A DNA stretch of 64,000 bases from Gaiellales bacterium (GTDB lineage Bacteria > Actinomycetota > Thermoleophilia > Gaiellales > JAICJC01), in assembly GCA_033856675.1 (NCBI GenBank), contig JAWVEN010000032.1, positions 41,081 through 105,080 of the forward strand, written 5' to 3'. Numbering within the stretch: position 1 is the first letter of the stretch; each line of letters begins with the position of its first letter. The translations under genes were made by a program, and so were the position numbers. Shown one piece after another: positions 5,362-40,323 of the stretch. The notes under the pieces were generated by a model that saw only the letters and a program-made list of their open reading frames with translations, ran no database searches and had not been told where the DNA came from.

Positions 5362-5465
5362 GGGGGATCCTTTGATGAGAAAGGGGAAGACTTCCTTCTC
5401 ACTGTCGGCCTTCCACGACTCGTTTGGCATACCTCTTCGGGGGTACATTTCGGACGGGTGAATCC

Positions 5466-5801
5466 ATGGCGAACGAGCTGATCCTGACAACGACCGGCCG
5501 GCGCACTGGGCTTCCGCGCAGCACGCACGTCCTCTACGGGCAACGGGGCGACGACATCGTTGTGGTCGCATCGAACGGGGGCCGCGCCAACGACCCGCAG
5601 TGGTATCGCAACCTCCTCGCCGACCCCGATGTCGGCGTGCAGGTGGGTGACAACCCGCTGCGCGCCCGCGCGCGGACGGCGGCCGGCACGGAGCGGGACG
5701 ACCTGTGGCAGATGATGGTCGCCGACTTCCCGCCGTACGCCGACTACCAACGTTCGCTGGAGCGCGAGATCCCGGTGATCGTGCTCGAACCGGTGGAGTA
5801 G
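5466..5801 (+). CDS. deazaflavin (F420)-dependent nitroreductase family oxidoreductase (DDN-like)
   Basis: LTTTGRRTGLPRSTHVLY..VVASNGGRANDPQWYRNLLADPDV.V..G and ..ADYQRSLEREIPVIVLEP are typical of the family. Start at internal ATG. Confidence 0.85.
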   Translation: MANELILTTTGRRTGLPRSTHVLYGQRGDDIVVVASNGGRANDPQWYRNLLADPDVGVQVGDNPLRARARTAAGTERDDLWQMMVADFPPYADYQRSLEREIPVIVLEPVE

Positions 5802-11194: not shown

Positions 11195-12429
11195 CACTCC
11201 CCCTCCGCGCCGGTGTGCGCCCGGTGACCGTTCCCCGAGCCGTTCGTATGCGCGTGCTCGGTCTGCCATGCCCTCAGGTGCGGCTGCATATGGCGGCTGA
11301 GCAGCTGATGGAAATGGTGCAGGCAGATCTCCTGGTCGGCGTTGTAACGCCCCTGGTGATAGACGCTCGAGCGCATTCCGCGCTGCGCCTGCTCGCAGAT
11401 CTCGTAGTCCTCCGTGTTGATCACATGGCCGAAGTTGACGAGCGCCGCCTGGAGAAGCTTGTCCTGGAAGTCCGTCGCCTTCGGCATCCACCACAGGAAC
11501 GTGGACTCGGTGCGCTCCGGCTCGACCGGCCGGATCATGAACATGAGAATCCCGTCCGGCATGAAGTTGACGGTGGTCAGCGGGAAGACCCAGTTGAAGT
11601 AGTACCCAGAGCTCTCCTGCTCGTCGAGGCCCCTCATCGGCGGCTTCAGGCGCCGGAACTCCTGAGTCCCACCGAGGATGCCCGCCACACGTGAGCCCGG
11701 ACCGCGGGGGTGCGGCTCACCGCCGTACTGCACGTTCGTGTACGTCCCCAGCTCATAGGTGTAGACCGTCGGGCTGAGGCCCAGCGCGAGCCCGGGGTGA
11801 ATGAAGGGGATGTGGTAGCCCTCCATGTAGTTGTCGACGTACAGCTTCCAGTTGCAGTCGATCGTCCATCGCCGCCCACCGATGAACTCGAGCTCGTCGA
11901 CGTGATAGTTCGCGAGGCGCGGAGTGATGTCGCTGAGCCAGTCCGAGAGCGGTGGCGTCGCCTCTTCGAGTGTGACCCAGACGCTCGGGCCCCACTCCTC
12001 GACGCGGAACTGCGGCAGCTTCATCTTCGAGCCGTCGAATCCCTCGGTTGTCTCCATGCCCTGCGCGCGGCGAAGCCGGCCGTCGAGCTCGAACATCCAA
12101 CCGTGATACGGGCACTGAAACGCGTTGCGCTGACCACAGCCCACGGCCACCGGCCCCGCGCGATGGAGGCAGACATTCGACATCGCCCGAAGGTCGCCGT
12201 CGCGGCCTCGGACGACCACGACCTGCTCGTTGGCGACCGTCGTCGTGAAGAACATTCCGGGCTCGCGCACCTCATGCGCCGAGCCGACGCAGTGCCAGAC
12301 ATCGCGCATCAGCGTCCGCTGCTCGAGCTCGAACAACTCACGCGAGGTGTACCAGTCACTCGGCAGGGTTCCCGAGTGGCCTACTCCGTGATCCTCCCAG
12401 ACCGACACCGGGCCCAGCATCGCGGTCAT
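11194..12429 (-). CDS. Rieske [2Fe-2S] non-heme-iron oxygenase alpha subunit (ring-hydroxylating/demethylase type)
   Basis: Rieske motif CLHRAGPV..-CPYHGW and mononuclear iron motif NYMEGYHIPFIHP. GGAGGAG RBS before the ATG at 12429. Confidence 0.9.
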   Translation of the reverse strand: MTAMLGPVSVWEDHGVGHSGTLPSDWYTSRELFELEQRTLMRDVWHCVGSAHEVREPGMFFTTTVANEQVVVVRGRDGDLRAMSNVCLHRAGPVAVGCGQRNAFQCPYHGWMFELDGRLRRAQGMETTEGFDGSKMKLPQFRVEEWGPSVWVTLEEATPPLSDWLSDITPRLANYHVDELEFIGGRRWTIDCNWKLYVDNYMEGYHIPFIHPGLALGLSPTVYTYELGTYTNVQYGGEPHPRGPGSRVAGILGGTQEFRRLKPPMRGLDEQESSGYYFNWVFPLTTVNFMPDGILMFMIRPVEPERTESTFLWWMPKATDFQDKLLQAALVNFGHVINTEDYEICEQAQRGMRSSVYHQGRYNADQEICLHHFHQLLSRHMQPHLRAWQTEHAHTNGSGNGHRAHTGAEGE

Positions 12430-12572
12430 CACAACTCTCCTCCTCAGGTGACGCGGTAGGTGCGAGCATGACCAGCGGAATACAGCATGACAACGGCAAA
12501 AACCTACGCAATGCGCAGCATGCAGGCGTAAAGTTTGCGCAAACTCCGGCCGCCCGGTATGTTCGGCGCGTA
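12430..12572. promoter_or_regulatory. divergent promoter/operator region between the Rieske oxygenase and the Lrp regulator
   Basis: 143-bp non-coding gap between two divergent starts. No specific box identified. Confidence 0.3.
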
Positions 12573-13052
12573 GTGAAAATCTCGCTCGACAGCGTCGACC
12601 GCGCCATCCTGGAGGGCCTCCAGGACGACGGCCGCCGGTCGTACCGCCAGATCGCTCGTGACGTCGGCGTCTCGGAGGGCACGGTGCGGACACGTGTCCG
12701 GCGGCTGGAGGACGCCGGGGTCCTGCGTGTGATCGCGTTCGTCGACCCCTCACGCCTGGGCAACTCCGTGCTCGCGCTGGTCTTCGTGCGCGTCTCGACC
12801 GCGCAGCACGGTGCAGTGGTGAAGGCGCTGGCGGAGCTCCCCGAAGCGACATATGTCTCGAGCCTGGTGGGACGGGCCGACGTCTATATCCAGATCATCT
12901 GCCGCGACAACGAGGCGCTCTGGAAGCTGGTCAGCGAGATCCGCAGCCTCTCCGGCGTCCTCGAGACCGAGACGATGCTGGAGATGGCCGTGCACAAGTT
13001 CACCTATCGCGACTCGGCCGCTGCGGCCGCCTCGTGGCAGCAGGACGCTTAA
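12573..13052 (+). CDS. Lrp/AsnC family transcriptional regulator
   Basis: LDSVDRAILEGLQDDGRRSYRQIARDVGVSEGTVRTRVRRLEDAGVL (HTH) followed by an ACT-like RAM domain. GTG 12573 gives a typical ~159 aa; the ORF's first start at 12468 is less likely. Confidence 0.85.
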   Translation: MKISLDSVDRAILEGLQDDGRRSYRQIARDVGVSEGTVRTRVRRLEDAGVLRVIAFVDPSRLGNSVLALVFVRVSTAQHGAVVKALAELPEATYVSSLVGRADVYIQIICRDNEALWKLVSEIRSLSGVLETETMLEMAVHKFTYRDSAAAAASWQQDA

Positions 13053-22594: not shown

Positions 22595-23875
22595 CTATCC
22601 TCCGTTCATCCGGTTGCCGCTGGGCGCGCAGGCCCCATGGAGCGCGTGGTGCTCGAGATCCGAGCGGAACTTCTGCACCGCCGAGTACACGGGTAGGCGG
22701 GGCATCGCGATCAAGCTGCAGATGCCGCCCTGCCCGTTTGCGAAATCGACGACCTCGGGCAGCTTGTCGATCAGCACCGGCGGCGCTCCGCCTTTGATCT
22801 GGCCGACGAGCTTCGCCAGCATGTTGGTCTCCATCCGGCACGGCGGGCACTGGCCGCACTGCTCGCGGGCGAAGAACTCGCAGATCTCGAGCAGGCGCTC
22901 GAGCATGCACTCGTCGTCGCCCATCACCGTGAAGACCGCGCACCCGAGCGCCGAGCCGAGGCTACGGATCGACTCGTGGTCGAGTGGGACGTCGAGCTCT
23001 GCGGCCGTCAGGAATCCCGAGGACGGCCCTCCGGGAAGCACGGCGCGGATCGGCCGCCCGGAGCGAAGCGGTCCCCCGCACGACTCCAGCATCTCGCGCA
23101 CGTTCGTGCCGAGCTCCACCTCGTAGACGCCCGGGCGTTCGAGCTCGTCGCCCAAGGTGCAGAGCACCGTGCCGCTGCTCGACCCGGTACCCAGCTCGCG
23201 GTACCAGTCGGGCCCTTCGCGGAAGATCACTGCAAGCGTCGCCGCCGTCTCGACGTTCAGCACCGCGGTCGGCCGGCGCAGCAGTCCCTCCGTGACGGGG
23301 TACGGCGGGCGCTCGGCGGGCAGCGCGCTCCCACCGCCCAGGAACGCAAGCGCAGCGGTGTCCTCGCCGGAGATGTACGACGCAGGCGCGACGGCCAGGC
23401 GCAGCACGATCTCGCCGTCGGAGCGCTCGCCATCCCCCTCCGCAGCCCATGGGTCGGTGCGGATTCCGCCCGCGGCCGCCGCCGCCTCGACCCGGGCTCC
23501 CGAGGACGGGTAGAGCTCGCTGATGTAGAACACCGCGTCGCGCGCCCCGACCAGCCTCGCAGCGATCAGCGCGCCCTCGACCACCAAGCCTGGGCATTGC
23601 TCCAGCAGCGCCTGGTCCTTGCCGCTGCCTGGCTCGTCCTCCGCCCCGTTCACCACAACGTATTTCTGCTCACCGTCAGCCTCTGAGGCGAGTCGCAGCT
23701 TCGTCCCGGTGGGGAAACCTGCGCCGCCGCGGCCTCGCAACCCGGAGCGTTCGGCCCACTCCAGGCCCTCCTCGACCGGCAGCGCGCCCGCCGCCTCCCA
23801 GCCGGCGTACGACAGCGTGTCGTCACGTCCGAACACCGGGCCGGCGTACATCCGCGGCACTGCCGAAAGGCTCAT
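22595..23875 (-). CDS. NuoF/HoxF-like NAD(P)H-binding FMN and [4Fe-4S] flavoprotein
   Basis: GLRGRGGAGFPTGTK (FMN/NADH site), SLBB-like middle region, and CGQCPPCR...C cluster motif. ATGA overlap with the upstream M20 gene. Confidence 0.85.
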   Translation of the reverse strand: MSLSAVPRMYAGPVFGRDDTLSYAGWEAAGALPVEEGLEWAERSGLRGRGGAGFPTGTKLRLASEADGEQKYVVVNGAEDEPGSGKDQALLEQCPGLVVEGALIAARLVGARDAVFYISELYPSSGARVEAAAAAGGIRTDPWAAEGDGERSDGEIVLRLAVAPASYISGEDTAALAFLGGGSALPAERPPYPVTEGLLRRPTAVLNVETAATLAVIFREGPDWYRELGTGSSSGTVLCTLGDELERPGVYEVELGTNVREMLESCGGPLRSGRPIRAVLPGGPSSGFLTAAELDVPLDHESIRSLGSALGCAVFTVMGDDECMLERLLEICEFFAREQCGQCPPCRMETNMLAKLVGQIKGGAPPVLIDKLPEVVDFANGQGGICSLIAMPRLPVYSAVQKFRSDLEHHALHGACAPSGNRMNGG

Positions 23876-25032
23876 CGCGCCTTCTCGTCGAGCAGGATCT
23901 GCGTGTAGCAGCGGACGGCACGGTAGATGTCCTGCACCTCGACGTGCTCGTCCTCGGTGTGCGCCAGGCGTTCGTCGCCAGGGCCGAGGAACACGGTCAC
24001 CACCCCCAGCCGTCCGAGCACCGACGCATCGGTGACGTACGGCATCGCGCGGGTGACCGGGGGGCGGCCAAGGGCGCGCTCGACCGATCCGGCCACACGA
24101 CCGACGAAGCTGTCGCCGCGGGCGACGGCGACGCCGGGCGCGTCGCGGGTCACCGCCACGGCGCCCCCGCGGCAGCGCCGCTCGATCTGCGCGACGAGTT
24201 CCGCGTGATGCATGCCCGAGACCGTGCGGATGTCGAGGTCGACGGAGCACTCGGCCGGAACGACGTTTCGCGCCACGCCCCCACGCAGGATGTTCAGCGA
24301 GACCGTTGGGCGGCCCAGCACGGGATCGTCCGCGCCTTGCGTGAGGCTTCGCTCGAGATCAGCGAACGGCATCAGCCACTCGAGCGTCTCGAGGATCGCG
24401 TTTTGGCCCTGCTCGGGCTGAGAGCTGTGGGCCGGCACGCCGGTGTTGGTGACCGACAGCCACAGCGCGCCCTTGTGGCCGATGCCGAGGTCGAGCCTGG
24501 TCGGCTCGCCGATCACCATCTCGGTCAGGCCATCGAGGGCGCCCATGTCAAGCAGCGCACTTGCACCGGCGGAGTCGACCTCCTCGGCGGTTGTCACGAT
24601 CAGCGCCACGCCGTCGAGCACGGCCGCGTCCGCCTCGGCGACGTCGCGCAAGGCGACCGCCATCGCCGCGAGCGCGCCTTTCATGTCACACGACCCGCGG
24701 CCGTGCAGGCGCCCGTGCTCAACGGCGCCGGAGAGCGGCGGGCGCGTCCACGCCGCAGCATCGGCAGGGACGGTGTCGACATGGCCGCAGAGGGCAAGCC
24801 GGGCCGGCCCCGTGCCCCATCGGGCAACCAGTCCCGCCGCGACACCATCGTTGCGCAGCAGCTCGAAGGACGCACCGGCGGCTCCGGCGAACCGGCCCAG
24901 CAACTCCAGCCCTTCGACGTTGCCCGCGTCGACCTGGCACGTGTCGATGCGGATCAGCGCCTGCGCCAGCGCAAGAGCATCCATCCCGCTCTCGTGCATC
25001 GGCGGAGGCAGTTCGTCGAGCAGCGAGCTCAT
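23872..25032 (-). CDS. M20 family metallohydrolase (ArgE/DapE-type deacylase)
   Basis: LCGHVDTVP, GRGSCDMKG, ..TTAEEVDS.., HTEDEHV are typical M20 metal- and catalytic-residue contexts. Confidence 0.9.
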   Translation of the reverse strand: MSSLLDELPPPMHESGMDALALAQALIRIDTCQVDAGNVEGLELLGRFAGAAGASFELLRNDGVAAGLVARWGTGPARLALCGHVDTVPADAAAWTRPPLSGAVEHGRLHGRGSCDMKGALAAMAVALRDVAEADAAVLDGVALIVTTAEEVDSAGASALLDMGALDGLTEMVIGEPTRLDLGIGHKGALWLSVTNTGVPAHSSQPEQGQNAILETLEWLMPFADLERSLTQGADDPVLGRPTVSLNILRGGVARNVVPAECSVDLDIRTVSGMHHAELVAQIERRCRGGAVAVTRDAPGVAVARGDSFVGRVAGSVERALGRPPVTRAMPYVTDASVLGRLGVVTVFLGPGDERLAHTEDEHVEVQDIYRAVRCYTQILLDEKAR

Positions 25033-25045
25033 GGCCGGAACGTCG

Positions 25046-25798
25046 TCAGTCCTCGAGCCAGGCCACGGCGCGAATCGGAGAACCGGTGCCGTCCTTGAAG
25101 TTGATCGGCAGGCCCATGTACATGAACCGCTTGCCGAGCAGCAGATCGAGGTTCGTCAGCACCTCGGTGTTCACGATCCCGTACTCGCCGCACACCATGT
25201 GCCCGGAGAACTCGAGGTCGTCGCTGTGGTCGATGGCGAGCTGGTCGATGCCGATATTGACGACGCCGCGCTCGGCCAGCCAGATGGCGCCCTCGCGGCT
25301 GAGCCCCGTGTAGGTGTCGATGAACTCCTTCGTGCCGAACGTGCGGTCGGCATGGCCTGTGTAGAGCAGCACGATGTCGCCCGGGCGGATCTCCTGGCCG
25401 CTCTTTGCGAGCGCATCCTCGAGCACCTCGGGCGTCAGCCAGTCGGGGTGCCGAACGTGCGTCACGTCGAGGCAGATCGCCGACCCGTAATAGAACGCGA
25501 GCGGCGTCTCGTCGATCGACGGGCCGCCGGGGACGTACTCGATCACTGCGTCCGTGTGCGTCCCGGTGTGCTCGCTCATCAGCCAGTTGTGAGCCTCGAA
25601 GCCGACGCTCGTGCCCCAGCGCTTCTTGAACCCCTCGTGATCCTGGTTGACGAACATGAACGGCAGCTGGTGGCCAGGCCAAAGCGGCATGCCCTGCTCG
25701 ATGTTGCGGGACAGGTCGATCAGCTTCAGGCCCCGTTCGAGCAGCTGGTCGCCGCCCTTCGGCGTCGCCCGCCGTCCGGTATCGGTTGCGATGCTCAT
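25046..25798 (-). CDS. cyclase-family (kynurenine formamidase/isatin hydrolase-like) metal hydrolase, variant motif
   Basis: SEHTGTHTDAVIEY matches the HxGTHxD core of the putative-cyclase family but lacks the following PxH. Start at the internal ATG of ORF 25046..25855. Confidence 0.85.
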   Translation of the reverse strand: MSIATDTGRRATPKGGDQLLERGLKLIDLSRNIEQGMPLWPGHQLPFMFVNQDHEGFKKRWGTSVGFEAHNWLMSEHTGTHTDAVIEYVPGGPSIDETPLAFYYGSAICLDVTHVRHPDWLTPEVLEDALAKSGQEIRPGDIVLLYTGHADRTFGTKEFIDTYTGLSREGAIWLAERGVVNIGIDQLAIDHSDDLEFSGHMVCGEYGIVNTEVLTNLDLLLGKRFMYMGLPINFKDGTGSPIRAVAWLED

Positions 25799-25835
25799 GT
25801 CCGCTCCTTCGTCTCGAGATTTGGGCACCGGCGGG

Positions 25836-26186
25836 TCAGAACGACCCCCAGCCACCGGCGTCGAGGATGTTCAGGATGAATCCGGCCGTCGTCTTGTCGG
25901 CAGTTTCCAGGCGCTCCAGGCGCGGCCCGCGGCCGGTCAGGTGCTCCACAAGCTCCGGGACATCCTCCTCCCGGACACCGCAGTACCAGGCACGGTCGGG
26001 GTACACGATCATGTTGGGGCCGATGTCGCAGCCGCCGAAGCACGTGTACTCCTCGAGCTCGACGTCGCCGCCGTCCGGATCGTCGTCGAGCAACCGCTGG
26101 ATCTCGTCGGCAAGCTCCAGCGATCCGCGTGACCGGCAGTCGATGTTGTCGCAGATGAAGAGCTTCTTCGGCTGATCGTCGTCCAT
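25836..26186 (-). CDS. thioredoxin-like [2Fe-2S] ferredoxin (NuoE-type fold)
   Basis: Cys pattern FICDNIDCRSRG ... YTCFGGCDIGPN (C-x4-C ... C-x3-C) followed by PNMIVYPD..WY. Confidence 0.8.
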   Translation of the reverse strand: MDDDQPKKLFICDNIDCRSRGSLELADEIQRLLDDDPDGGDVELEEYTCFGGCDIGPNMIVYPDRAWYCGVREEDVPELVEHLTGRGPRLERLETADKTTAGFILNILDAGGWGSF

Positions 26187-26212: not shown

Positions 26213-26443
26213 TCAACGGTCCAGCACGGCATGGACGAGGGCATGTGTCTCGACGCCGTACTCCGACAGCGACGTTCCGCTGTCGAGCGCGGTGCCGTTG
26301 AAGCTGAGCGATACCGAGCCGGGCGCGCCGGGCTCCTTGAACGCCTCGAGCACGGCTTCCCGTGTCTCGTCCACCGAGCTGGACGGCGACACACCGGGCA
26401 GGGCCCGCGGGGGCAGCTCGTCCGGCACGAGTGCGTAGATCAT
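26213..26443 (-). CDS. small 76-aa protein in the gamma/TmoB position of the hydroxylase operon
   Basis: Lies 12 nt after the alpha stop, with good codon bias. Size and position fit TmoB/gamma-type small subunits. Sequence similarity cannot be confirmed by eye. Confidence 0.45.
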   Translation of the reverse strand: MIYALVPDELPPRALPGVSPSSSVDETREAVLEAFKEPGAPGSVSLSFNGTALDSGTSLSEYGVETHALVHAVLDR

Positions 26444-29605: not shown

Positions 29606-31111
29606 CTACGTGTGACTGACCGGAGAGATGCCTGCGTACTCACGCGCGAAGCGGGCCATCTCCGACCGGTCGGTGTGCTGGTAGACGAGGTGGGCAACGT
29701 ACGCCGGCGGCGTTGCGTTCACGTTCTCGAACAAGGCAACGCGGTTCGCGTGGGCGCCGCTCAGCAGATCCCATACGAAGCTGAAGAACTGGTTCTTCTC
29801 GCGCGCGGTGACCCCGGTACCGGGGAGGTACTCCTCCAGCATCGGGCCGAACTCGGGGTGGTCCCAGACCTTCTCGGGCCAGCGGGAGATCAGCGCCTGT
29901 CCGCACAGGTCCTTCATCAGGTAGGTGATCCGCGGGTACTCCTTGATCGAGTACAGCCGGCCCGCCGTGACGAGCGGCGGATTGGGCACCTGGACGCCGC
30001 ACCACTCCACGGCCTCCTCGATCGTGGCCACGGTGTAGGCGCGCAGGGTCTGGGCGTACAGCGTGATCTCGGCGACCGCGTTCTGGACGCCGGGGATGAC
30101 GTCCGTGCCAAGGATCTCCGTGATCGCCTGCGCCACGCCGGCGAAGATCTCGGCCCGGAAGCCGAGCCGCATCATGATCGACCACAGCATGTACGCGCCG
30201 CTCTCGTAGTACACGTCGAGCAGTGCGCGGTTGCGCACGCTGAAGACGAACTCCTTGGGGATGAAGACGTCGTCGAACAGATAGATCTGATCTGTCTCCT
30301 CCCCACGGGCCTCGACCGGGTGGTCGCCGGGGTTGGGGTTCGGCGGCACCGTCGGCTCGCGCAGCACGAGTGACAGTCCCGCGCTGTTCACCGGGACGCC
30401 CGCCCAGATCGCCGCGTCGTCGGTCACGCCCTCGCCGAGCACGGTCGACAGCGTCAGCATGTGGCAGAGGGCGCCGATGCTGCCGGCAACCTTTGCCCCC
30501 CGCACGACGATGCCGTCGGGCCGGTCCTCGACGATCCGCAGCTGTCCCGGCTTCTCGTTCTTCGGGATCCTGCGATCGGACTGCGGGTCGGCGATCAGGT
30601 CGGTGCTGAGCAGGTTGAGGTCGCCGGACATGGTGACGTACTTGCGCATGTTCTCGGCGAACTCCGGGTTCTCCGCCTCGACCCGGTCGATCACGGCCAG
30701 GAACCCGAGCGACATCATCGGCCCGTAGTCGGGCGGCCGGCCGTACATGCCGAGGGTCTCCAGCGTGATGCGGCGGGTCGAGTCCCGCTTCGCCGACAGG
30801 TGCTCCTTGGTCGTCGGCACCTGCCAGCCCACCGCGCGCCGGGCCCCCGCTTCGTCGACGTACGTCAGCGTGTCGCGGGTGGCGGGGTCGAACTGCAGGT
30901 CGAGCACGCGCGCGATCGAGTTCACCGCCGTCGTCGCCGGATGGGTGGTGACGTCCTCGATCTCCTCTCCGGACGCGCTGACCACCCGCCGGCCGTCGCG
31001 CAGCGTCTGCCTGTACTGGTCACCCGTCAGGAGGTGCGGATCGGCGCTCCCGTCCAGCGCCTCCACGACCTTGTCGATTCCGAGCCGCTTGGCGTCGGTC
31101 GCGATGCTCAT
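29606..31111 (-). CDS. HpaB-family (4-hydroxyphenylacetate 3-hydroxylase-like) flavin-dependent oxygenase component
   Basis: About 501 aa with the N- and C-terminal HpaB architecture (..RVLDLQFDP.., ..RIVEDRPDGIVVRGAKVAGS.., ..YPRITYLMKDLCGQALI..). GAAGGGA RBS. No flavin reductase gene nearby. Confidence 0.8.
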   Translation of the reverse strand: MSIATDAKRLGIDKVVEALDGSADPHLLTGDQYRQTLRDGRRVVSASGEEIEDVTTHPATTAVNSIARVLDLQFDPATRDTLTYVDEAGARRAVGWQVPTTKEHLSAKRDSTRRITLETLGMYGRPPDYGPMMSLGFLAVIDRVEAENPEFAENMRKYVTMSGDLNLLSTDLIADPQSDRRIPKNEKPGQLRIVEDRPDGIVVRGAKVAGSIGALCHMLTLSTVLGEGVTDDAAIWAGVPVNSAGLSLVLREPTVPPNPNPGDHPVEARGEETDQIYLFDDVFIPKEFVFSVRNRALLDVYYESGAYMLWSIMMRLGFRAEIFAGVAQAITEILGTDVIPGVQNAVAEITLYAQTLRAYTVATIEEAVEWCGVQVPNPPLVTAGRLYSIKEYPRITYLMKDLCGQALISRWPEKVWDHPEFGPMLEEYLPGTGVTAREKNQFFSFVWDLLSGAHANRVALFENVNATPPAYVAHLVYQHTDRSEMARFAREYAGISPVSHT

Positions 31112-31130: not shown

Positions 31131-32627
31131 TCAAATCGCTGCGTCTCCCTCGACCATGGGCCGCATGTCCGCGGCCTCGACGATCGACTCCTCACGTCCG
31201 GGGTGATTGCGCTCCGGGAACAGCATCAGGCTCGCGCCGTAGATCACGGCCGAGATCACGGCCGCGCTGGTGAAGCTGAGGTCGATGCCCTTGTAGGCGT
31301 CGGCCCACGGGCCGACCCAGAGCGTCGTGTTGATGCAGAGGATGCCGACGGTGACCGCCGGGATGAACGCGGCTGCGGCCCGCAGGTTCACGCCGCTGGT
31401 GAACCAGTACGCCCCGCCCGTCTGGCCGAGGTTGAAGAGCTGCAGGTCATGTACGTGGTAGCGCTTCCGGGCGTAGTAGAACCCGATCAGGCAGATCACC
31501 ATCCATGGCGTGCAGATCACGATCAGGAAGAGCAGGAACGCGCTGACGGTGTCGAACGCACTCCAGACCAGGGCGCCCAGGTAGACGAGCGCCACTGCCA
31601 CGGCACTGATCAAGAGCGTGGCGGGGATGCGCTGCAGCCGCGGAATCAGCGACGACATGTCGAGACCGGTGCCGTAGAGGCAGATCGCGCCCTGGGCGAG
31701 GCTCCCGAAGAAGCCGATCGCCATCAGCCCGACGACGTACCAGCTCGGCGATGTGGCGACGAGCCCGTCCATGAAGAGCAGCGTCGGGTCCATCATCGTG
31801 GCCATGTACGCGGCCCAGACGAGCGCCACCCAGCAGCCGACGAACATCCCGAGGCCCGCCGCCGTCGCGACCGACCGGTCGCTCCACTTCTTCGGAGAGA
31901 TGTATCTGGCGTAGTCGTTGGCAAACGGCGTGTAGCTGATCGGCAGCGATGCGGCCGTCACCATCGCGAGCACCCAGGTCGGCCAGAAGTCGCCGAGCAG
32001 GTAGGCGCCGCCGTGATAGCCGGCGTCGAAGTCGCCGAGCTTGGCGAAGAAGCCGACGACCAGCAGAGCCCCGACCACCGGGATCACGATCTTCTGCGCG
32101 GCCACCACGTTGGCGTGGCCATAGATCGCGAGCGTGATCACGATCGCACTGATGATCCCGTACATCAGTCCGCGCGCGACGTTGCCGTCGGGCGTGTCGA
32201 GCAGGCGGTGGGCGCCGGCGACGACCGCGTCGCCGCCGGTCCAGATCGTCAGCGCCGCAAAGCCCATGGCGATGAACAGCGCCTGCAGCGAGCCGACGAC
32301 ACGGCCCAACAGGCCGAAGTGCGCACCGGACGTGACAGCGCTGTTCGTCCCGCTGTACGGGCCGAGCAGCGAGAACGGCGCGAACGGAAGACAGCCGACG
32401 ACGAGGCCGACGGTGATCGCGGCCACCGAGCTCCACCAGCCGAGGCCGAAGGCGACCGGCAGCCACCCGAGCACGATGATGCCGAAGCACATCTGCGCGC
32501 CGACCCACACGTAGAACAGGTTCGTCGGGGTCGAGTGCCGGTCTTCGAACGGGATGTAATCGATGCCGTGGGTCTCGATCTTTCCGACCTCGTCAACGGC
32601 GGTTGGGTGCTGCCCAGATGTGCTCAT
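31131..32627 (-). CDS. NCS1-family nucleobase/hydantoin-type permease (purine-cytosine permease-like)
   Basis: 12-TM profile. N-terminus ..IETHGIDYIPFEDRHSTPTNLFYVWVGAQM.. is typical of CodB/NCS1 transporters. Confidence 0.9.
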   Translation of the reverse strand: MSTSGQHPTAVDEVGKIETHGIDYIPFEDRHSTPTNLFYVWVGAQMCFGIIVLGWLPVAFGLGWWSSVAAITVGLVVGCLPFAPFSLLGPYSGTNSAVTSGAHFGLLGRVVGSLQALFIAMGFAALTIWTGGDAVVAGAHRLLDTPDGNVARGLMYGIISAIVITLAIYGHANVVAAQKIVIPVVGALLVVGFFAKLGDFDAGYHGGAYLLGDFWPTWVLAMVTAASLPISYTPFANDYARYISPKKWSDRSVATAAGLGMFVGCWVALVWAAYMATMMDPTLLFMDGLVATSPSWYVVGLMAIGFFGSLAQGAICLYGTGLDMSSLIPRLQRIPATLLISAVAVALVYLGALVWSAFDTVSAFLLFLIVICTPWMVICLIGFYYARKRYHVHDLQLFNLGQTGGAYWFTSGVNLRAAAAFIPAVTVGILCINTTLWVGPWADAYKGIDLSFTSAAVISAVIYGASLMLFPERNHPGREESIVEAADMRPMVEGDAAI

Positions 32628-32661: not shown

Positions 32662-33411
32662 TCAGGACAGATCTCCTCGCAACGCGACCGCGCGCACCGG
32701 CGAACCGGTGCCCGCGCGGATGTTCAGCGGCAGCCCGAGGAAGAAGAACCGTGTTCCGGCAACCTTGTCGAGGTTCGTCAAACTCTCGGTATTCACGATG
32801 CCGTACTGCTTGCAAATTTGGTGCGCCGAAAACTCGAGATCGGTGCTCTTGTCAATCGACAGGTTGTCGGTGCCGATGTTGACGACGCCGGCCTTCGCCA
32901 GGAACTCGGCGCCCTCGAGATTCAGGCCGGGATACTCCTCGGCGTACTTCAAGGTCGGGAACACGGTGTCGCCGTATCCCGTGTGCATCAGCACGATGTC
33001 GCCGCGCTCGATCGCGAGGCCGCTGCTCTCGAGCGACTCGCGCAGCATCTCCTCGGTGATCCACCGGTCGGCCGTCAGGGGCGCCAGATCGAGGCAGATC
33101 GCGGGGCCGTACCAGTAGGACAGCGGAGACTCGTCCAGGTGCGGCCCCGACTCGTCGTACTCGAACACGGCGTCGGTGTGCGTCCCGCAGTGCTCGCTGA
33201 TCAGCAGGTTGTGGGCTTCGAACCCGCAGCTGGTCTTCCAGATCTCCTTGAACTCGTCGTGCGTCTGGTTGCGCATGATGAAGGTCTTCTGATGACCGAA
33301 CCACTGGGGCATGCCCTCGTAGATGGGGCGGGTGAGATCGACGACCTCGACCCCTCGGTCAAGCAGGTCGCTTCCCAGCAGTGGAAGGGAGCTCGGCGTG
33401 GTTGCTGACAC
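32662..33411 (-). CDS. cyclase-family metal hydrolase, paralogue of 25046..25798
   Basis: SEHCGTHTDAVFEY, the same variant motif. Alignable over the full length with the first copy (roughly half the residues identical by eye). Confidence 0.85.
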   Translation of the reverse strand: MSATTPSSLPLLGSDLLDRGVEVVDLTRPIYEGMPQWFGHQKTFIMRNQTHDEFKEIWKTSCGFEAHNLLISEHCGTHTDAVFEYDESGPHLDESPLSYWYGPAICLDLAPLTADRWITEEMLRESLESSGLAIERGDIVLMHTGYGDTVFPTLKYAEEYPGLNLEGAEFLAKAGVVNIGTDNLSIDKSTDLEFSAHQICKQYGIVNTESLTNLDKVAGTRFFFLGLPLNIRAGTGSPVRAVALRGDLS

Positions 33412-33439: not shown

Positions 33440-33931
33440 TCAGTCCGTGACCACTGCGATGACTTCGACCTCGATCAGAAAGCCGTCGGACATGAACCCG
33501 TCGACACGCACGGCTGTTCCACACGGCCCCGGGTCCGCCAGGTACTCCATGCGCACCTTGGTCATGCGTCGCCAGAAGTCGCCCGCCTCATCCTCAGGGC
33601 CGTCGAACGTGTAGTACGTGTTGATCTTGACCACGTCCTTCCACGACGCCCCCGCCTCTTCGAGAACGCGGGTGATGTTCTCGAAGGTGTTGCGCGTCTG
33701 GACTTCGATGTCGCCGCGGCCGATCACGTCGCCGTTCTCATCCGCGGAGAGCTGGCCGCCGACGAAGACGAGATCCCCGATCCGCCAACCCTGCGAGAAC
33801 GGCGACGGGATGCTCCAGTCCCAGTGGTTCTCCGGCATCAGCCGGCGCTTGGGGCCGAGCCTGGCCGTGACCATCCGCGCCGGGCCGTTACCGTCGGTCG
33901 CCTCGGTGGCGCTCCCCGTGCTGTCGTTCAC
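33440..33931 (-). CDS. RidA/YjgF family protein, paralogue of 20420..20869
   Basis: MPENHWDWSIPSPFSQGW..LVFVGGQLSADENGDVIGRGDIEVQTRNTFENITRVLEEAGASW.. parallels the first copy. Start may be an internal Met. Confidence 0.9.
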   Translation of the reverse strand: MNDSTGSATEATDGNGPARMVTARLGPKRRLMPENHWDWSIPSPFSQGWRIGDLVFVGGQLSADENGDVIGRGDIEVQTRNTFENITRVLEEAGASWKDVVKINTYYTFDGPEDEAGDFWRRMTKVRMEYLADPGPCGTAVRVDGFMSDGFLIEVEVIAVVTD

Positions 33932-34021: not shown

Positions 34022-34993
34022 TTGCCGCAAGTGATCGGCGTCCTGGCGGAGTTGTGCAAAGCTGCCGGTGGAGGGATCAGCGCAATGCCACGTGCACCAG
34101 GCGAAATGAGGCCTGAGAGTCAGCGACAGGCGCCGCTCTCGAGCGTGAGCGCGCCTGAGCCCGTTCCCGGTGGGCGGCGCCGCATTCCCGGGTCGGACGA
34201 CCGGCCCGCGGGCGTGTACATCAACCAGGCGGCCCGCATCGTCGGGGTGTCCGCGTCGCTGATCCGGATCTGGGAGAACGAGGGCCTGGTCACCCCGGCT
34301 CGGACGCAGTCCGGCTACCGCGTGTTCTCGCCGCAGGACATCGAGCGCCTGCGCCACATCCGCGACCTGATCCAGCGAGACGGCCTCAATGCCGCCGGAG
34401 CGCGGCGCTTGCTCAGCAGCACCGGCGCCGAGAACGGCGCCGAGCGGCCGCGGTCGATGGCCGTCGGCGAGAAGCTGCGGATGCTCCGACGCCGGCGCGG
34501 CCTGTCATTGCGCGCCCTCGCGGCCATGACCGGCCTCAGCCCGTCGTCGATCAGCGCCATGGAGCGCGGCCTCAGCTCACCTACGGTCGGCTCGCTGCAC
34601 CGGCTGGCAATCGCGTTCGAGATCACGGTGCCCGCCCTGATGGGCACGCCGGAGCCCCACGAGCGGCTGGTTGTGCGACCGCATGAGCGCCCTCTGCTGT
34701 TCGGCGCGCCCGGGGTGAAGATGGAGAACCTCTACGACGTCGACACGATCCTGCAGTCGATGGTGATCACCGTCGAGCCGGGGGCGGGCAGCGAGGAGTC
34801 CTATGCCCACGAAGGTGAGGAGGTGCTCTACATGATCGAGGGCGAGATCGACGTCACGCTCGACGAGATCGACACGTACCGGCTCCGCCCCGGCGACGCG
34901 ATGACCTTCGCCAGCACGCGCCCGCACCGGTGGACGAATCCCGGCGACGTCACGGCGGCGATCGTCTGGATCAATACGCCGCCGACCTTCTGA
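34022..34993 (+). CDS. three-module regulator: MerR-type HTH + XRE-type HTH + cupin sensor domain
   Basis: MerR: VYINQAARIVGVSASLIRIWENEGLVTPARTQSGYRVFSPQDIERLRHIRDL. XRE: VGEKLRMLRRRRGLSLRALAAMTGLSPSSISAMERGLSSPTVGSLHRLA. Cupin: HEGEEVLYMIEGEIDV....Y.L.PGDAMTF....PHRW.N. Start uncertain: 34022, 34085 or 34106. Confidence 0.85.
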   Translation: MPQVIGVLAELCKAAGGGISAMPRAPGEMRPESQRQAPLSSVSAPEPVPGGRRRIPGSDDRPAGVYINQAARIVGVSASLIRIWENEGLVTPARTQSGYRVFSPQDIERLRHIRDLIQRDGLNAAGARRLLSSTGAENGAERPRSMAVGEKLRMLRRRRGLSLRALAAMTGLSPSSISAMERGLSSPTVGSLHRLAIAFEITVPALMGTPEPHERLVVRPHERPLLFGAPGVKMENLYDVDTILQSMVITVEPGAGSEESYAHEGEEVLYMIEGEIDVTLDEIDTYRLRPGDAMTFASTRPHRWTNPGDVTAAIVWINTPPTF

Positions 34994-35000
34994 CCGATCG

Positions 35001-36221
35001 TCAGGGCGCCGATGCCAACTCGGCCAGCGCGCGCTGCAGCACGCCGATCGCAATGCCGACATCCTCGGCGGAGGTGTCCTCGAGCGGCGAGTGGCTGACA
35101 CCGCCCGCAAGGCTGCGGGCGAACACCATGCCGACCGGCACGCCGGCCATCCCCAGGATCTGGGCGTCGTGCCCGGCGCCGGACGGCAGCGCCGGTGCGC
35201 CGTTCGCAGCGGTCGTGGCAGTGGCCTTCACCGCAGGGTCGGTGAGGACGGCGTGTGTACGCGCTCCCTCGCCCATCTCGGCCGTACAGCCGTAGGCCTC
35301 GGCGCACCGCTCGGCGGCGTCCCGGATGCGCCGCTCGAGGTCGGCAACGCGGTCGTCGTCAGGGGCACGGGCATCGACGACCAGGCGCGCGACGCGCGGG
35401 ATGACGTTGCTCGCGCCCGGCTCGACGCTGATCACGCCAACCGTGGCCACGGCGTTCTCGATTGCCCGAGCAGCGTCGGCGATCTCGAGCTGAAACGCCG
35501 CGGCGCACAGGGCGGCGTCGCGACGGTCTGCCATCGGCGTCGTGCCGGCGTGGCCGGCCTTGCCCTCGAACACCACGTCGAGCTCTACGAGGCCCACGAT
35601 CGACTCCACGATGCCGACCGGTGCAGAGCGCCCCGCCAGCACCGGCCCCTGCTCGATGTGGAGCTCCAGGAACACCGCGGGCAGGTCGACCGGCGCCGAA
35701 GCAGGGTCGGAGGCGCCATACCCCAACTGCTCCAGCGCGTCGCGGACCGTGACGCCTTCGCGGTCCGCCAGGTCATAGGCGTCGGGCGGCAGCTGACCGG
35801 TCGCCGCCCGGCTGCCGAAGAACCCGCGGCCGAACCGCCAGCCCTCTTCGTCGCGAAACGCCACCACGGCGACGGTGCGATCGCCCTGCTCCAGACCGGA
35901 CACGGCGGCGAGGCTGCCGATCACGCCGAGCGCGCCGTCGAACTTGCCGCCCGACGGCACCGTGTCGAGATGCGACCCACACCAGATCTCGCCGAGCTCC
36001 GGCCGTCGCCCGCGCAGCCGGCCATAGAGGTTGCCGACCGCGTCACGGGAGGTCTCAAGGCCCGCGTCCTGCATCCAGCACTCGACGAGGTGATGCGCCT
36101 CCTCCTCGGCGGCGCTCAGGCCGGGCCTGTTCGCGCCCGGCCCGCCGCCGATGGCGTACAGCTCATCCAGCTGAGAGAGCGCGAGTGAAAAAAAGGGGTC
36201 TGGCCCCTTTTTTTCAGTCAT
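35001..36221 (-). CDS. M20-family N-carbamoyl-L-amino-acid / allantoate amidohydrolase (AmaB/HyuC-like)
   Basis: ..NRPGLSAAEEEAHHLVECWMQDAGLETSRDAVGNLYGR..GSHLDTVPSGGKFDGALGV..GKAGHAGTTPM.. ATGA overlap with the racemase stop. Confidence 0.85.
   Translation of the reverse strand: MTEKKGPDPFFSLALSQLDELYAIGGGPGANRPGLSAAEEEAHHLVECWMQDAGLETSRDAVGNLYGRLRGRRPELGEIWCGSHLDTVPSGGKFDGALGVIGSLAAVSGLEQGDRTVAVVAFRDEEGWRFGRGFFGSRAATGQLPPDAYDLADREGVTVRDALEQLGYGASDPASAPVDLPAVFLELHIEQGPVLAGRSAPVGIVESIVGLVELDVVFEGKAGHAGTTPMADRRDAALCAAAFQLEIADAARAIENAVATVGVISVEPGASNVIPRVARLVVDARAPDDDRVADLERRIRDAAERCAEAYGCTAEMGEGARTHAVLTDPAVKATATTAANGAPALPSGAGHDAQILGMAGVPVGMVFARSLAGGVSHSPLEDTSAEDVGIAIGVLQRALAELASAP
36188..36214. 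terminator. perfect 11-bp A7G4 / C4T7 hairpin (5-nt loop), bidirectional intrinsic-terminator-like, lying in codons 3-11 of the amidohydrolase ORF
   Basis: aaaaaaagggg-tctgg-ccccttttttt read directly. Strikingly AT-rich for this sequence. Begins 7 nt after the ATGA gene junction. Confidence 0.5.
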
Positions 36222-36925
36222 ACCGCGGGCACGGTTGCCGGCTCCTGGAAGGCGCGGATCTTGGAGGTGCGCAGCCCGAGGCGGACGAGGCTCTCCGCCA
36301 GCACCACGGCTGCCGGCACGCCTTCGACCACCGGCACGCCCAGCCGCTCCTCCAGCGCCGCCCTCGTCTCCAGCATCAGGCCGCAGCCGAGGCACAGCAC
36401 TTCGGCGCCCCCCGCGACGGCCCGGCGGCCGGCCTCCTCCAGCTGCGCCAATGCCGACAGCGGATCCTCACCGAGGTCGACCACCTCCGCCCCGCTGGCC
36501 TCGATCGACGCACAACGCGACTCGATGCCGTAATGGCGGAGCAGGTCGATCGTCCCGGGAACGCCGCGGTCGAGCGTCGCGACCACACCGAACCGGTGCC
36601 CGAGCGACATTGCGAGGGAGAAGCTCGCTTCGGCGATCCCGATCACCGGCGCATCGGTCAGCTCGCGCGAGGCGTAGAGCCCCGGATCGCCGAAGCAGCC
36701 GATGATCGCGGCGTCGAACGTCCCCCGGCGCTCCAGGATGCAGCGGGCGACACCGGCCGCGGCCAGCGCCTCGTCGTAGAAGCCGTCGATGAACGGCACG
36801 CCGTCATCGACCGTGGCGCCGATGATCTCGGTGCCCGGGCCGGCGACCTCCTGGGCGGCCACCACCATGCTGTCGGTCATCGACGAGGTCGTGTTCGGGT
36901 TGATGAGAAGGATCTGCATGGTCAC
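36218..36925 (-). CDS. Asp/Glu/hydantoin racemase family protein
   Basis: ILLINPNTTSSMTD.., ..IIGCFGDPGL.., ..LCLGCGLM.. (two catalytic-Cys contexts). ATGA overlap with the hydantoinase stop. Confidence 0.85.
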   Translation of the reverse strand: MTMQILLINPNTTSSMTDSMVVAAQEVAGPGTEIIGATVDDGVPFIDGFYDEALAAAGVARCILERRGTFDAAIIGCFGDPGLYASRELTDAPVIGIAEASFSLAMSLGHRFGVVATLDRGVPGTIDLLRHYGIESRCASIEASGAEVVDLGEDPLSALAQLEEAGRRAVAGGAEVLCLGCGLMLETRAALEERLGVPVVEGVPAAVVLAESLVRLGLRTSKIRAFQEPATVPAV

Positions 36926-38349
36926 TCTCCCGCCGTTGTGAGATCAGGGGTGGCCGCCGAGACAGGCGTCACGAACCGGCCGGTGCCGGCCTCGGCGAAC
37001 CGCTCGCCCTCGGGGCCGTCCTCGTACACCGTCCGGCCGCGCACCAGCGTCCGCACCACCTTCCCCGTCAGCTCGACGCCCTCGAACGGCGTCCACTTGT
37101 GCGTGTGGTGAAGGTTCGCGCCCTCGACCGTCCATCGCCGCTCGGAGTCGAGCAGCACCAGATCGGCGTCGGCGCCTGGTGTGATCGCGCCCTTGCGAGG
37201 TGCGAGCAGCCACAGCTGCGCGGGTGCCGTCGCGAGCCATCGCGCGATCGTCCCCCACTCGAATCCCCGTTTCCTCGCCTCGGTCACCACGAGCGGGACG
37301 AGGGTCTCGATGCCCGGCAGGCCATTCGGCGTCTCGAAGATGTTGTCAGTTCCGCGAACGCGGCTCTCGAGCGTGAACGCACAGTGGTCGGTGGTGATGC
37401 AGTCGATGGTGCCGTCGGCCAGCCGCTCCCACAGCCGCTCGACGTCGCTGCGATCGCGGATCGCAGGCGCACAGCGGGCGAACGAGCCCAGCCGTCGGAG
37501 GTCATCGTGGTCGAGCGCGAGGTACTGGGGGCAGGTCTCGCACGTGACACGGACGCCGCGCTCCTTCGCCTTCGCCACCAGATCGGCGGCGTCGCCGGTG
37601 CTCATGTGGACGATGTGCACCCAGCCGCCGAGGTGCTCGGCGAAGAAGATGGCGCGGTTCACGGCCTCCACCTCGACGATCGGCGGACGCGAATCGGCAT
37701 GGGCGATCGCATCGGTCCGTCCCCGGCCCTCCGTCTCGGCCAGGCCGGCGTTCAACAGGGCGTCGTTTTCGGAGTGCAGGCCGAGCATGAACGGCGTCCC
37801 CTTCAGCTCGCGCAACGCGGCCACGAGCTGCGCGTCGTCGATGCCGGGAAACGACGGGTCGGAGTTGCACATGAACGCCTTGAACCCGACCGCACCCTCG
37901 GCGATCTGATCGCGGATCGCCTGAGCGTCCTGCCCCTGGGTGACCCCGCCCCACAGTGCGAAGTCGACGATCGCCTTTTCCTGCGCCAGCGCGCGCTTGC
38001 GCGCGAACAACGCACCGTCGACGGTCACCGGACGCGCCTGCGGCATCTCAACCACCGTCGTCACGCCGCCCGCCGCGGCTCCGCGGCCGCCCATCTCGAA
38101 GCCCTCGGACTCGTCGGGGTCGGGCCCGAACAACTCGGGATCGTCCTGTGTGAAGTGCGTGTGCCCGTCCACGGCGCCCGGCAGGACGACCAGCCCAGTG
38201 GCGTCGATCACCGTCGCACCCTCCACCGATGCCGAGCCCGGCGGGAGCAGCGCCTCGATCCGCTCGCCGCTGATGACCACGTCCAGCACTGCGGTCTCGT
38301 CTGGAGTGACGACCAGACCGCCGCGTATGACCCGTCTGTCTTCGCTCAT
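36922..38349 (-). CDS. cyclic amidohydrolase (hydantoinase/dihydropyrimidinase/allantoinase family)
   Basis: ..VLPGAVDGHTHF.., ..GFKAFM.., ..VHIVHMS.., ..ITTDHCAF.. are metal-ligand contexts of the amidohydrolase superfamily. Start at the internal ATG 38349. Confidence 0.85.
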   Translation of the reverse strand: MSEDRRVIRGGLVVTPDETAVLDVVISGERIEALLPPGSASVEGATVIDATGLVVLPGAVDGHTHFTQDDPELFGPDPDESEGFEMGGRGAAAGGVTTVVEMPQARPVTVDGALFARKRALAQEKAIVDFALWGGVTQGQDAQAIRDQIAEGAVGFKAFMCNSDPSFPGIDDAQLVAALRELKGTPFMLGLHSENDALLNAGLAETEGRGRTDAIAHADSRPPIVEVEAVNRAIFFAEHLGGWVHIVHMSTGDAADLVAKAKERGVRVTCETCPQYLALDHDDLRRLGSFARCAPAIRDRSDVERLWERLADGTIDCITTDHCAFTLESRVRGTDNIFETPNGLPGIETLVPLVVTEARKRGFEWGTIARWLATAPAQLWLLAPRKGAITPGADADLVLLDSERRWTVEGANLHHTHKWTPFEGVELTGKVVRTLVRGRTVYEDGPEGERFAEAGTGRFVTPVSAATPDLTTAGE

Positions 38350-38372
38350 GTCAGTGCCTTTGCTCGAAGGGT

Positions 38373-40309: not shown

Positions 40310-40323
40310 ACAACCATCGTTTG

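Follow-up and report, generated by a model that had tools for sequence, protein, structure and literature searches.

A stretch of 64,000 nucleotides from a Gaiellales bacterium (contig JAWVEN010000032.1, referred to as the window) was analysed for an operon on its minus strand. This operon encodes the subunits of a soluble diiron monooxygenase (SDIMO) of the phenol-hydroxylase type, and it also carries the genes for a small [2Fe-2S] ferredoxin and for a flavoprotein resembling NuoF, the two proteins with which this study is mainly concerned (Table 1). An initial annotation had proposed this pair as a candidate reductase of a diiron oxygenase. Both of the open reading frames (ORFs) that it named were recovered at the same positions, and the motifs that it listed were all present, namely C-x4-C...C-x3-C in the ferredoxin and GRGGAGFPTGTK and CGQCPPCR in the flavoprotein. 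The gene junctions were also as described: the stop codon of the M20 gene and the start codon of the NuoF-like gene share ATGA, an overlap of 4 nucleotides, and the NuoF-like stop codon TAG is followed by GC and then by the ATG of the GroEL-like gene, a gap of 2 nucleotides. The two hydrolase genes said to lie between the pair within one coupled unit are a cyclase gene and the M20 gene, and every intergenic gap from the hydroxylase beta gene through the second RidA gene is 37 nucleotides or less. The genes for the MmoB/DmpM effector and for a protein of 76 amino acids had been overlooked.

The start of the effector gene overlaps the beta stop codon by 4 nucleotides, and a gap of 267 nucleotides separates the beta gene from the HpaB-like gene. 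After the GroEL-like gene, on the same strand, come a second RidA gene and then two IclR-type genes. A GroEL-like gene was found in many related loci, and its product is a probable assembly factor of the hydroxylase. The cyclase and the M20 protein between the ferredoxin and NuoF-like genes are pathway enzymes outside the electron chain.

Table 1. Positions of the operon genes in the window, listed in minus-strand order, and of related gene sets in other loci (locus names are given where the positions are not those of the window).
Feature	Position	Strand	Remarks
RidA	33440-33931	-	First gene in minus-strand order
Cyclase (second copy, upstream)	32662-33411	-	
NCS1 permease	31131-32627	-	
HpaB-like oxygenase	29606-31111	-	
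Hydroxylase beta subunit, 348 amino acids	28292-29338	-	Pfam Phenol_Hydrox 3e-60; homologues 344-348 amino acids
MmoB/DmpM-type effector (coupling) protein, 109 amino acids	27966-28295	-	Pfam MmoB_DmpM 4e-17
Hydroxylase alpha subunit, 500 amino acids	26456-27958	-	Pfam Phenol_Hydrox 2e-56 and YHS
76-amino-acid protein, gamma-subunit position	26213-26443	-	Weak Pfam ubiquitin match 1e-4, below cut-off
Thioredoxin-like [2Fe-2S] ferredoxin (predicted cluster), 116 amino acids	25836-26186	-	Pfam 2Fe-2S_thioredx 6e-07
Cyclase/arylformamidase-family hydrolase	25046-25798	-	Pfam Cyclase 8e-36
M20 (ArgE/DapE-type) deacylase	23872-25032	-	Pfam Peptidase_M20 6e-35 and M20_dimer
NuoF-like FMN/[4Fe-4S] flavoprotein, 426 amino acids	22595-23875	-	Pfam Complex1_51K 2e-30, SLBB 8e-07, NADH_4Fe-4S 5e-13
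GroEL-like chaperonin, 564 amino acids	20898-22592	-	Pfam Cpn60_TCP1 4e-43; NCBIfam GroEL subfamily match
Ferredoxin/NuoF-like pair, L011	6371-8130		Acidimicrobiia
Ferredoxin/NuoF-like pair, L012	9530-11161		Acidimicrobiia
BoxB-like triad, L006	8509-11260		
BoxB-like triad, L008	8430-11233		
BoxB-like triad, L075	3135-6263		
BoxB-like triad, L076	3518-6266		

Hydroxylase, ferredoxin and flavoprotein of the operon

Analysis of the alpha subunit revealed phenol hydroxylase PHN as its best match in PDB (2inn/3u52, 3e-82), followed by toluene monooxygenases (~1e-53) and, far more weakly, by methane monooxygenase (~1e-22). The protein carries the diiron site motifs and a C-terminal YHS/4-Cys domain, and among 24 members of its clade the residues E115, D144-E145-x-R147-H148, E206 and D239-E240-T-R-H243 are invariant. 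Two E...ExxH diiron motifs in a Phenol_Hydrox alpha subunit, with a beta subunit and an MmoB/DmpM effector encoded beside it, identify the locus as an SDIMO. The third feature of this family, an NADH reductase with plant-type Fer2 and FAD/NAD (FNR-like) domains, to which a Rieske ferredoxin may be added, was not found among the window ORFs screened, and the locus was therefore classed as a variant of the family. The 76-amino-acid protein had no Pfam family above threshold. Its single-sequence AlphaFold2 model (predicted local distance difference test, pLDDT, 74) had ubiquitin as the top Foldseek matches, with template-modelling (TM) scores of 0.7-0.8, and a ubiquitin-like beta-grasp fold is predicted from this model. 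The gene occupies the site where phenol hydroxylases encode the gamma subunit, and a gene for 73-83 amino acids was present at this position in every related locus.

The search for a canonical reductase used Pfam scans of 53 ORFs, phmmer with an FNR-type query and a regular expression for the Rieske motif. Among the ORFs screened across the 64 kb, there was no FNR-type reductase (Fer2/FAD_binding_6/NAD_binding_1), no Rieske ferredoxin and no Flavin_Reduct protein, and no DmpK-like accessory gene was found in the operon. NuoG, FdsA and hydrogenase subunits were likewise absent near the pair in the window. The slot after the small subunit, where a reductase is expected, is occupied by the ferredoxin instead. 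The sole Rieske domain found in the window ORFs belongs to an oxygenase alpha subunit of the Rieske/Ring_hydroxyl_A type (11194-12852, minus strand), and no beta subunit, ferredoxin or reductase gene for it was seen among the same ORFs.

The four cysteines of the ferredoxin (C12, C17, C49 and C53) are spaced as C-x4-C...C-x3-C and were kept in every ferredoxin aligned. The protein matches only the C-terminal half of Pfam 2Fe-2S_thioredx (PF01257, model positions 68-144). Its sequence matches in PDB were HydB (7q4v_B, residues 7-106, 5e-13), Aquifex Fd4 (5e-10) and NuoE (~2e-3). The AlphaFold2 model (pLDDT 87) matched Aquifex Fd4 (1f37), 1m2d and 7q4v_B in Foldseek at TM 0.67-0.77, and it was superposed on the HydB domain (7q4v_B) with a root-mean-square deviation of 1.9 A over 90 columns. 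NuoE proteins have ~160-240 amino acids and an N-terminal helical domain; the ferredoxin has 116 amino acids and lacks this domain, scores 28.3 bits against nuoE_fam (NCBIfam, cut-off 142.4) and also falls under the narrow NCBIfam equivalog cut-offs for thioredoxin-like [2Fe-2S] ferredoxins. By sequence and model, it is thus a member of the thioredoxin-like [2Fe-2S] ferredoxin family with a predicted cluster, and not an equivalog. This family comprises proteins or domains of ~100-110 amino acids and also includes the 2Fe ferredoxins of Clostridium and Azotobacter. The earlier name "NuoE-like" was therefore imprecise, the N-terminal domain of HydB and Aquifex Fd4 being the nearest relatives.

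Comparison of the ferredoxins revealed a C-terminal tail, RLETADKTTAGFILNILDAGGWGS (residues ~95-116; 25836-25900, minus strand), that is nearly invariant among close homologues and contains the conserved stretch ILDAGGWGS. A tail core of hhDAG followed by GWGS or LLPG is common to distant ferredoxins with a NuoF-like neighbour, and the tail is divergent in ferredoxins of the L018 and L032 type, which have no NuoF-like neighbour. This pattern suggests that the tail may be a docking element.

The NuoF-like protein aligns end to end with NuoF-type subunits, with GRGGAGFPTGTK at residues 48-59, CGQCPPCR at residues 340-347 and the fourth cysteine at 386. Its homologues have 424-428 amino acids and cover it completely (100%), which indicates that the start giving 426 amino acids is correct. 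The best PDB matches were NiFe-HydB (7t2r_B, 8e-71) and Mycobacterium smegmatis NuoF (8e9g_F, 2e-70). The name "NuoF-like" stands as far as the signatures for NADH, flavin mononucleotide (FMN) and the [4Fe-4S] cluster are concerned, with the glycine-rich FMN/NADH loop and all four cluster ligands (C340, C343, C346 and C386) in place. It does not extend to a NuoF equivalog, since the protein scores 286.7 bits against a cut-off of 558.65 for TIGR01959 and 231 against 389 for NF010120. Nor is the gene part of a nuo operon with nuoE and nuoG, its neighbours being the M20 and GroEL-like genes; a true nuoC-D-E-F stretch (L072) served for contrast.

A total of 61 positions were at least 93% conserved across 43 members of the flavoprotein clade, and these include all cofactor ligands. 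Among them are G48, G50, G51, A52, F54, K59, N76, E79, E81, Y167, G170, E171, N207, E209 and T210 together with the four cysteines. In a neighbour-joining tree, the oxygenase-linked flavoproteins form one clade (bootstrap 99/100) that excludes M. smegmatis NuoF, S. meliloti NuoF, HydB and the second NuoF-like protein of L046. Two signatures mark this clade, NG(A/G/S)E(D/H)EPGS in place of the canonical NADE(G/S)(E/D)PG and CRMET in place of CREG, and the changed residues are found close to the flavin site and to the [4Fe-4S] cluster. The first signature occurs in 119 of the 120 top database homologues of the protein and the canonical motif in none of the 120. The change from CREG to CRMET is consistent with an altered partner surface.

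Co-occurrence with hydroxylase genes and comparison with known systems

The same gene order was found around NuoF-like homologues at 87, 76 and 55% identity, and also in a Gaiellales genome. A metagenome scan with the alpha alignment gave 50 loci, the six-frame ORFs of which were searched by phmmer; loci with an alpha subunit at least 40% identical and at least 2.5 kb of sequence beyond it were taken as informative (n=21). The ferredoxin was present in all 21 and the NuoF-like gene in 16, the exceptions being three L018-type loci, L032 and L038. Canonical phenol hydroxylase loci, with an alpha subunit 28-33% identical, had neither gene (0/6 each), and an FNR-type reductase followed directly downstream in five of these six. 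The neighbourhood of the pair with hydroxylase genes, which the initial annotation had set out to be checked, thus holds down to ~40% alpha identity and in several gene orders. Plasmid searches with the alpha subunit gave only canonical matches, 37% identical or less.

Synteny with the oxygenase genes holds from 98% down to 40% alpha identity, and the pair is retained through at least four gene orders among the loci with an alpha subunit at least 40% identical. These orders include beta-effector-alpha-small-ferredoxin-NuoF-like, alpha-beta-effector-ferredoxin-NuoF-like-cyclase, and NuoF-like...effector-ferredoxin-Pyr_redox-beta-alpha. In L017 (alpha 52% identical), the genes for beta, MmoB, alpha, a protein of 75 amino acids, the ferredoxin and the NuoF-like protein are contiguous, with no hydrolase genes in between and with the ferredoxin stop codon overlapping the NuoF-like start codon; GroEL was not detected on this 13-kb contig. 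The order in L024 and L025 is ferredoxin, cyclase, NuoF-like, with M20 absent, and in many loci the genes for the ferredoxin and the NuoF-like protein directly adjoin or overlap. The orders in L017, L024 and L025 indicate that the cyclase and M20 genes were inserted between genes that are adjacent elsewhere. In L019 (alpha 42%, Sporichthyaceae), both genes of the pair are present in a rearranged cluster.

Two of these loci hold further genes of note. L038 has an ORF of 562 amino acids without a Pfam match (4141-5829, plus strand) after the ferredoxin, where relatives have the NuoF-like gene. The Sporichthyaceae-type SDIMO cluster of L019 (3141-11666), also found in L053 and L054, has in L019 Meth_synt_2 and Pyr_redox_2 genes between the NuoF-like gene and the beta and alpha genes. 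These are reminiscent of epoxyalkane:coenzyme M transferase and 2-ketopropyl-coenzyme M reductase/carboxylase, and this member of the clade could be alkene-oxidising.

Comparison with the multicomponent phenol hydroxylases (DmpKLMNOP of Pseudomonas CF600, PHK-P of Pseudomonas sp. OX1, the 'PhMO' group) revealed the same order of beta, effector, alpha and small subunit (PMC11825192), the same E/ExxH diiron ligands, the C-terminal YHS/4-Cys domain and an effector of the MmoB/DmpM type. However, the alpha subunit of the window is only ~33-37% identical to the canonical enzymes, and neither a DmpK-like gene nor a DmpP-type Fer2-FAD-NAD reductase was found in the window operon, which has a free ferredoxin, a NuoF-like flavoprotein, a GroEL-like chaperonin and the small subunit of 76 amino acids with its predicted ubiquitin-like fold. 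The four-component toluene/alkene monooxygenases (T4MO TmoA-F, ToMO) follow the same logic of a separate NADH-oxidising flavoprotein and a small [2Fe-2S] carrier, although the protein families are unrelated: the carrier there is a Rieske protein, a motif that the regular expression did not find in the operons studied here, instead of a thioredoxin-like ferredoxin, and the reductase there is of the FNR type with flavin adenine dinucleotide (FAD) and a plant-type [2Fe-2S] cluster instead of the NuoF type with FMN and [4Fe-4S].

The NADH-input modules NuoEF, HoxFU, FdsBG and HydBC/NfnBC share with the pair the flavoprotein fold, the FMN loop GRGGAGFPTG, the cluster motif C-x2-C-x2-C...C and, in the ferredoxin, the thioredoxin-like [2Fe-2S] fold with NuoE-type cysteine spacing. 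Unlike these modules, the pair lacks both a NuoG-like partner and the N-terminal domain of NuoE, has motifs of its own clade and accompanies oxygenases instead of respiratory or hydrogen- and formate-converting enzymes. Actinobacterial SDIMOs that need a GroEL-like chaperonin include MimABCD, with MimG, and propane monooxygenases. In these SDIMOs (groups 5 and 6), the GroEL paralogue is likewise encoded at the end of the monooxygenase operon; the reductase is a canonical one of the FNR type, and they are not known to have a separate ferredoxin.

The known reductases of SDIMOs are of the FNR type, and a Rieske ferredoxin is added in some groups. A review of 2025 recognises seven groups with a reductase in every operon described, and it makes no mention of Nuo-type or thioredoxin-like components (PMC11825192). 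Searches of the full-text literature found no description of a NuoF-type/thioredoxin-like pair for an SDIMO or diiron monooxygenase, the composition of HpdABCDE lying outside that search. HpdABCDE, which oxidises 2-hydroxypyridine in Burkholderia sp. MAK1, is a monooxygenase termed "atypical" (PMC8313251), and its fourth and fifth components might be of the same kind as the pair. HpoBCDF is cited as a four-component dioxygenase, and published accounts of the picolinate PicB system present it as a conventional Rieske oxygenase.

Proposed electron route and alternative explanations

Overall, our analysis suggests that the phenol-hydroxylase-type SDIMO of the operon is probably fed by a two-protein chain of the ferredoxin and the NuoF-like flavoprotein, unlike the chains known for this family. 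In this scheme, NAD(P)H would be oxidised at the FMN of the flavoprotein in a two-electron step, single electrons would leave through its N3-type [4Fe-4S] cluster, and the free [2Fe-2S] ferredoxin would deliver them to the diiron site in the alpha subunit. The MmoB-like effector would gate the hydroxylase, and the GroEL-like protein would aid its folding or assembly. The motifs, folds and synteny support the cofactor complement and the partnership, whereas the order of transfer and the preference for NADH are inferred by analogy with the biochemistry of NuoF and HydB, and the physical contacts between the proteins are likewise presumed. HydB (7q4v_B) fuses both modules, its residues 7-106 corresponding to the ferredoxin and 158-533 to the flavoprotein, which argues that the two modules exchange electrons. 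The role of candidate reductase proposed in the initial annotation has thus gained support from the co-occurrence, from the lack of a competitor among the screened ORFs and from the conserved cofactor residues.

Several observations weigh against this scheme. It rests throughout on genomic context and homology, and a preference for NAD(H) or NADP(H) is not readable from the sequence. Near the FMN, the canonical N-A-D-E is N-G-A-E-D in this clade. The two genes of the pair are not adjacent in the window, where the two hydrolase genes separate them. L018 (alpha 45%) keeps the ferredoxin without a NuoF-like gene and has a Fer2-FAD-NAD reductase ~5 kb upstream; loci of this type have such a reductase 5-6 kb away, and in L018, L028, L029 and L057 the ferredoxin is kept with no NuoF-like gene within 10 kb. 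In L032 and L038, the ferredoxin is present and no reductase at all was seen. The constant member of the pair is thus the ferredoxin, the NuoF-like protein being optional. Conversely, L011 and L012, two loci of Acidimicrobiia metagenome-assembled genomes (MAGs), have the pair with no hydroxylase gene detected up to 10 kb away, and most of the neighbours scanned with Pfam in L012, which include a UvrD helicase, YbjN, DUF4230 and PhaC, are housekeeping genes, so that the pair may be a more general NADH:ferredoxin module.

These same loci, in which the ferredoxin goes with an FNR-type reductase, stands alone or occurs with its partner away from any detected oxygenase, lend weight to an explanation in which the ferredoxin is the electron carrier and the NuoF-like protein is one of several interchangeable housekeeping NADH:ferredoxin reductases; related NuoF-like proteins that serve FAD_binding_2 enzymes in Burkholderiaceae point the same way. 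We consider it unlikely, because the NuoF-like gene lies beside the ferredoxin gene in 16 of the 21 loci, often translationally coupled, and because the ferredoxin tail is conserved where this partner is present and divergent where it is not. Less probable still is the explanation that the pair and the GroEL-like protein jointly mature or reductively reactivate the hydroxylase and do not act in each catalytic cycle, the turnover reductase being encoded at another site of the genome. A reductase far from the operon is conceivable, as the window does not span the whole genome, and the GroEL-like gene starts 2 nucleotides from the NuoF-like stop codon; however, the pair in L017 directly follows the hydroxylase genes on a contig where GroEL was undetected, the BoxB-like triads described below have no chaperonin, and the slot filled here by the pair holds the reductase in five of the six canonical loci.

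It is very improbable that the pair acts as the missing flavin reductase of the neighbouring HpaB-like two-component flavin monooxygenase and does not serve the diiron enzyme. No Flavin_Reduct gene accompanies the HpaB-like gene among the ORFs screened, and in L005 such a gene does follow HpaB. Enzymes of the HpaB type use free reduced flavin, however, and do not need an iron-sulfur carrier. This explanation was rejected, since the pair occurs with SDIMO genes and no HpaB gene in L017, L019, L034-L039 and L043-L051, and also in BoxB-like triads. The idea that the pair is a decaying or inserted remnant of the NADH-input module of a formate dehydrogenase, hydrogenase or complex I, with no role in the operon, draws on the fact that both families are best known from those complexes, and the initial annotation had itself named a formate dehydrogenase or hydrogenase remnant as what would overturn its proposal. 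It is scarcely credible and largely refuted: no subunit of these complexes (NuoG, FdsA or hydrogenase) lies nearby, both ORFs are intact, the 61 conserved positions include the cofactor ligands, and the flavoproteins form a separate clade (99/100) with oxygenase synteny over the whole range of alpha identity.

If the two-protein chain is real, it would be a third way to feed a diiron oxygenase. A deep-branching uncultured soil clade (Gaiellales, Acidimicrobiia, Sporichthyaceae) seems to use this complex-I-type FMN/[4Fe-4S] module with a thioredoxin-like ferredoxin, and the NADH-input module of complex I, hydrogenases and formate dehydrogenases would then have been reused for oxygen-activating enzymes. 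It might also explain why such enzymes would fail in a heterologous host that is given no more than the alpha, beta and effector genes with a generic reductase, and it would define an expression set of the hydroxylase genes, the 76-amino-acid gene, the ferredoxin, the NuoF-like protein and the GroEL-like protein.

Occurrence of the pair beyond SDIMOs and the neighbouring genes

Analysis of NuoF-like relatives at 45-48% identity (P0046, P0053, P0034, P0111 and P0082) revealed that all five are part of triads with a BoxB-like protein and a small gene. The NuoF-like gene directly follows a PaaA_PaaC-family gene of 365-370 amino acids and a small gene of 86-110 amino acids; in four of these loci the small gene gave a match to Pfam 2Fe-2S_thioredx, and in P0034 it gave none to any Pfam family. 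The PaaA_PaaC-family protein is BoxB-like and so belongs to a second, ferritin-like family of diiron oxygenases, with 217-253 bits for NCBIfam benzo_boxB (below the cut-off) and a match to PDB 3per at 2e-48. Enoyl-CoA-hydratase genes precede the triad in two loci. The triads occur in MAGs labelled Deltaproteobacteria, Tectomicrobia, Acidobacteria and Binatia. BoxA of the benzoyl-CoA 2,3-epoxidase BoxAB is an FAD/[4Fe-4S] reductase. The triads share with BoxAB a BoxB-like diiron protein and enoyl-CoA-hydratase genes, and differ in that the BoxB-like protein is ~100 residues shorter and below the equivalog cut-off and that the ferredoxin/NuoF-like pair takes the place of BoxA. The gene set resembles an acyl-CoA epoxidase of the Box type served by another reductase. 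The presence of the module beside BoxB-like proteins suggests that the principle is general.

Plasmid 2 of Variovorax sp. WDL1 (L016, NZ_LR594690.1 563558-582688) has a ferredoxin at 30% identity (E 1e-8) and a NuoF-like protein at 38%, in a cluster with Rieske oxygenase alpha subunits, 2,5-dihydroxypyridine 5,6-dioxygenase, an alpha/beta hydrolase, an isochorismatase-family protein and a molybdenum hydroxylase; this pair may serve a Rieske oxygenase in pyridine-ring catabolism. It is an even question, in our judgement, whether the pair represents a class of modular NADH-dependent oxygenase reductases, unrecognised so far, that docks through the ferredoxin tail and was recruited repeatedly across phyla, by phenol-hydroxylase-type SDIMOs in Actinomycetota, by BoxB-like acyl-CoA epoxidases in Deltaproteobacteria, Tectomicrobia, Acidobacteria and Binatia, and possibly by Rieske oxygenases. 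On plasmid p1 of Burkholderia sp. FERM BP-3421 (L020, 472237-475846), genes for a TauD/TfdA dioxygenase, a protein annotated to the iron-containing redox enzyme family, an amidohydrolase and a thioredoxin-like ferredoxin lie in a row, the same ferredoxin type beside a putative iron oxygenase.

The scan of the genome collection with the NuoF-like protein alone gave seven loci. In Burkholderiaceae, the best plasmid matches of the NuoF-like protein are part of another conserved triad, in which a Fer2_4/Fer4 iron-sulfur protein and an FAD_binding_2 protein accompany it and which is not linked to SDIMOs (L073, L077, L078 and L079; megaplasmids of Cupriavidus, Paraburkholderia and Caballeronia). The FAD_binding_2 flavoprotein is fumarate-reductase-like, and in L073 a dicarboxylate symporter gene comes next. 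This triad is another non-respiratory use of the stand-alone NuoF module and illustrates the modularity of the domain.

The SDIMO genes of the window are linked to genes for an NCS1 nucleobase-type permease, an HpaB-like hydroxylase, two cyclases, an M20 hydrolase and two RidA proteins. The link between cyclase and SDIMO was also found in loci at only 40% alpha identity, including the distant loci L043, L044, L046 and L051; in L017 the cyclase is absent between the ferredoxin and NuoF-like genes. HpoH, an enzyme of the cyclase family, is reported to act on 2,3,6-trihydroxypyridine in Rhodococcus (cited in PMC6214936). The linked genes and the HpoH activity make catabolism of a small N-heteroaromatic compound plausible, with low confidence.

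The window has a G+C content of ~68%. Its region was present in soil-metagenome DNA runs, the only runs in which it was found, with none among RNA runs, and the nearest genome relative is a Gaiellales MAG with a NuoF-like protein 84% identical. Beyond the operon, a divergent gene for a MerR-cupin regulator (34022-34993, plus strand) is followed by a group of minus-strand genes (35001-44101) for a second M20 hydrolase, an Asp/Glu/hydantoin racemase, an amidohydrolase (hydantoinase/dihydropyrimidinase-like) and an Opp-type ABC transporter. This gene content suggests the use of hydantoins or N-carbamoyl amino acids.

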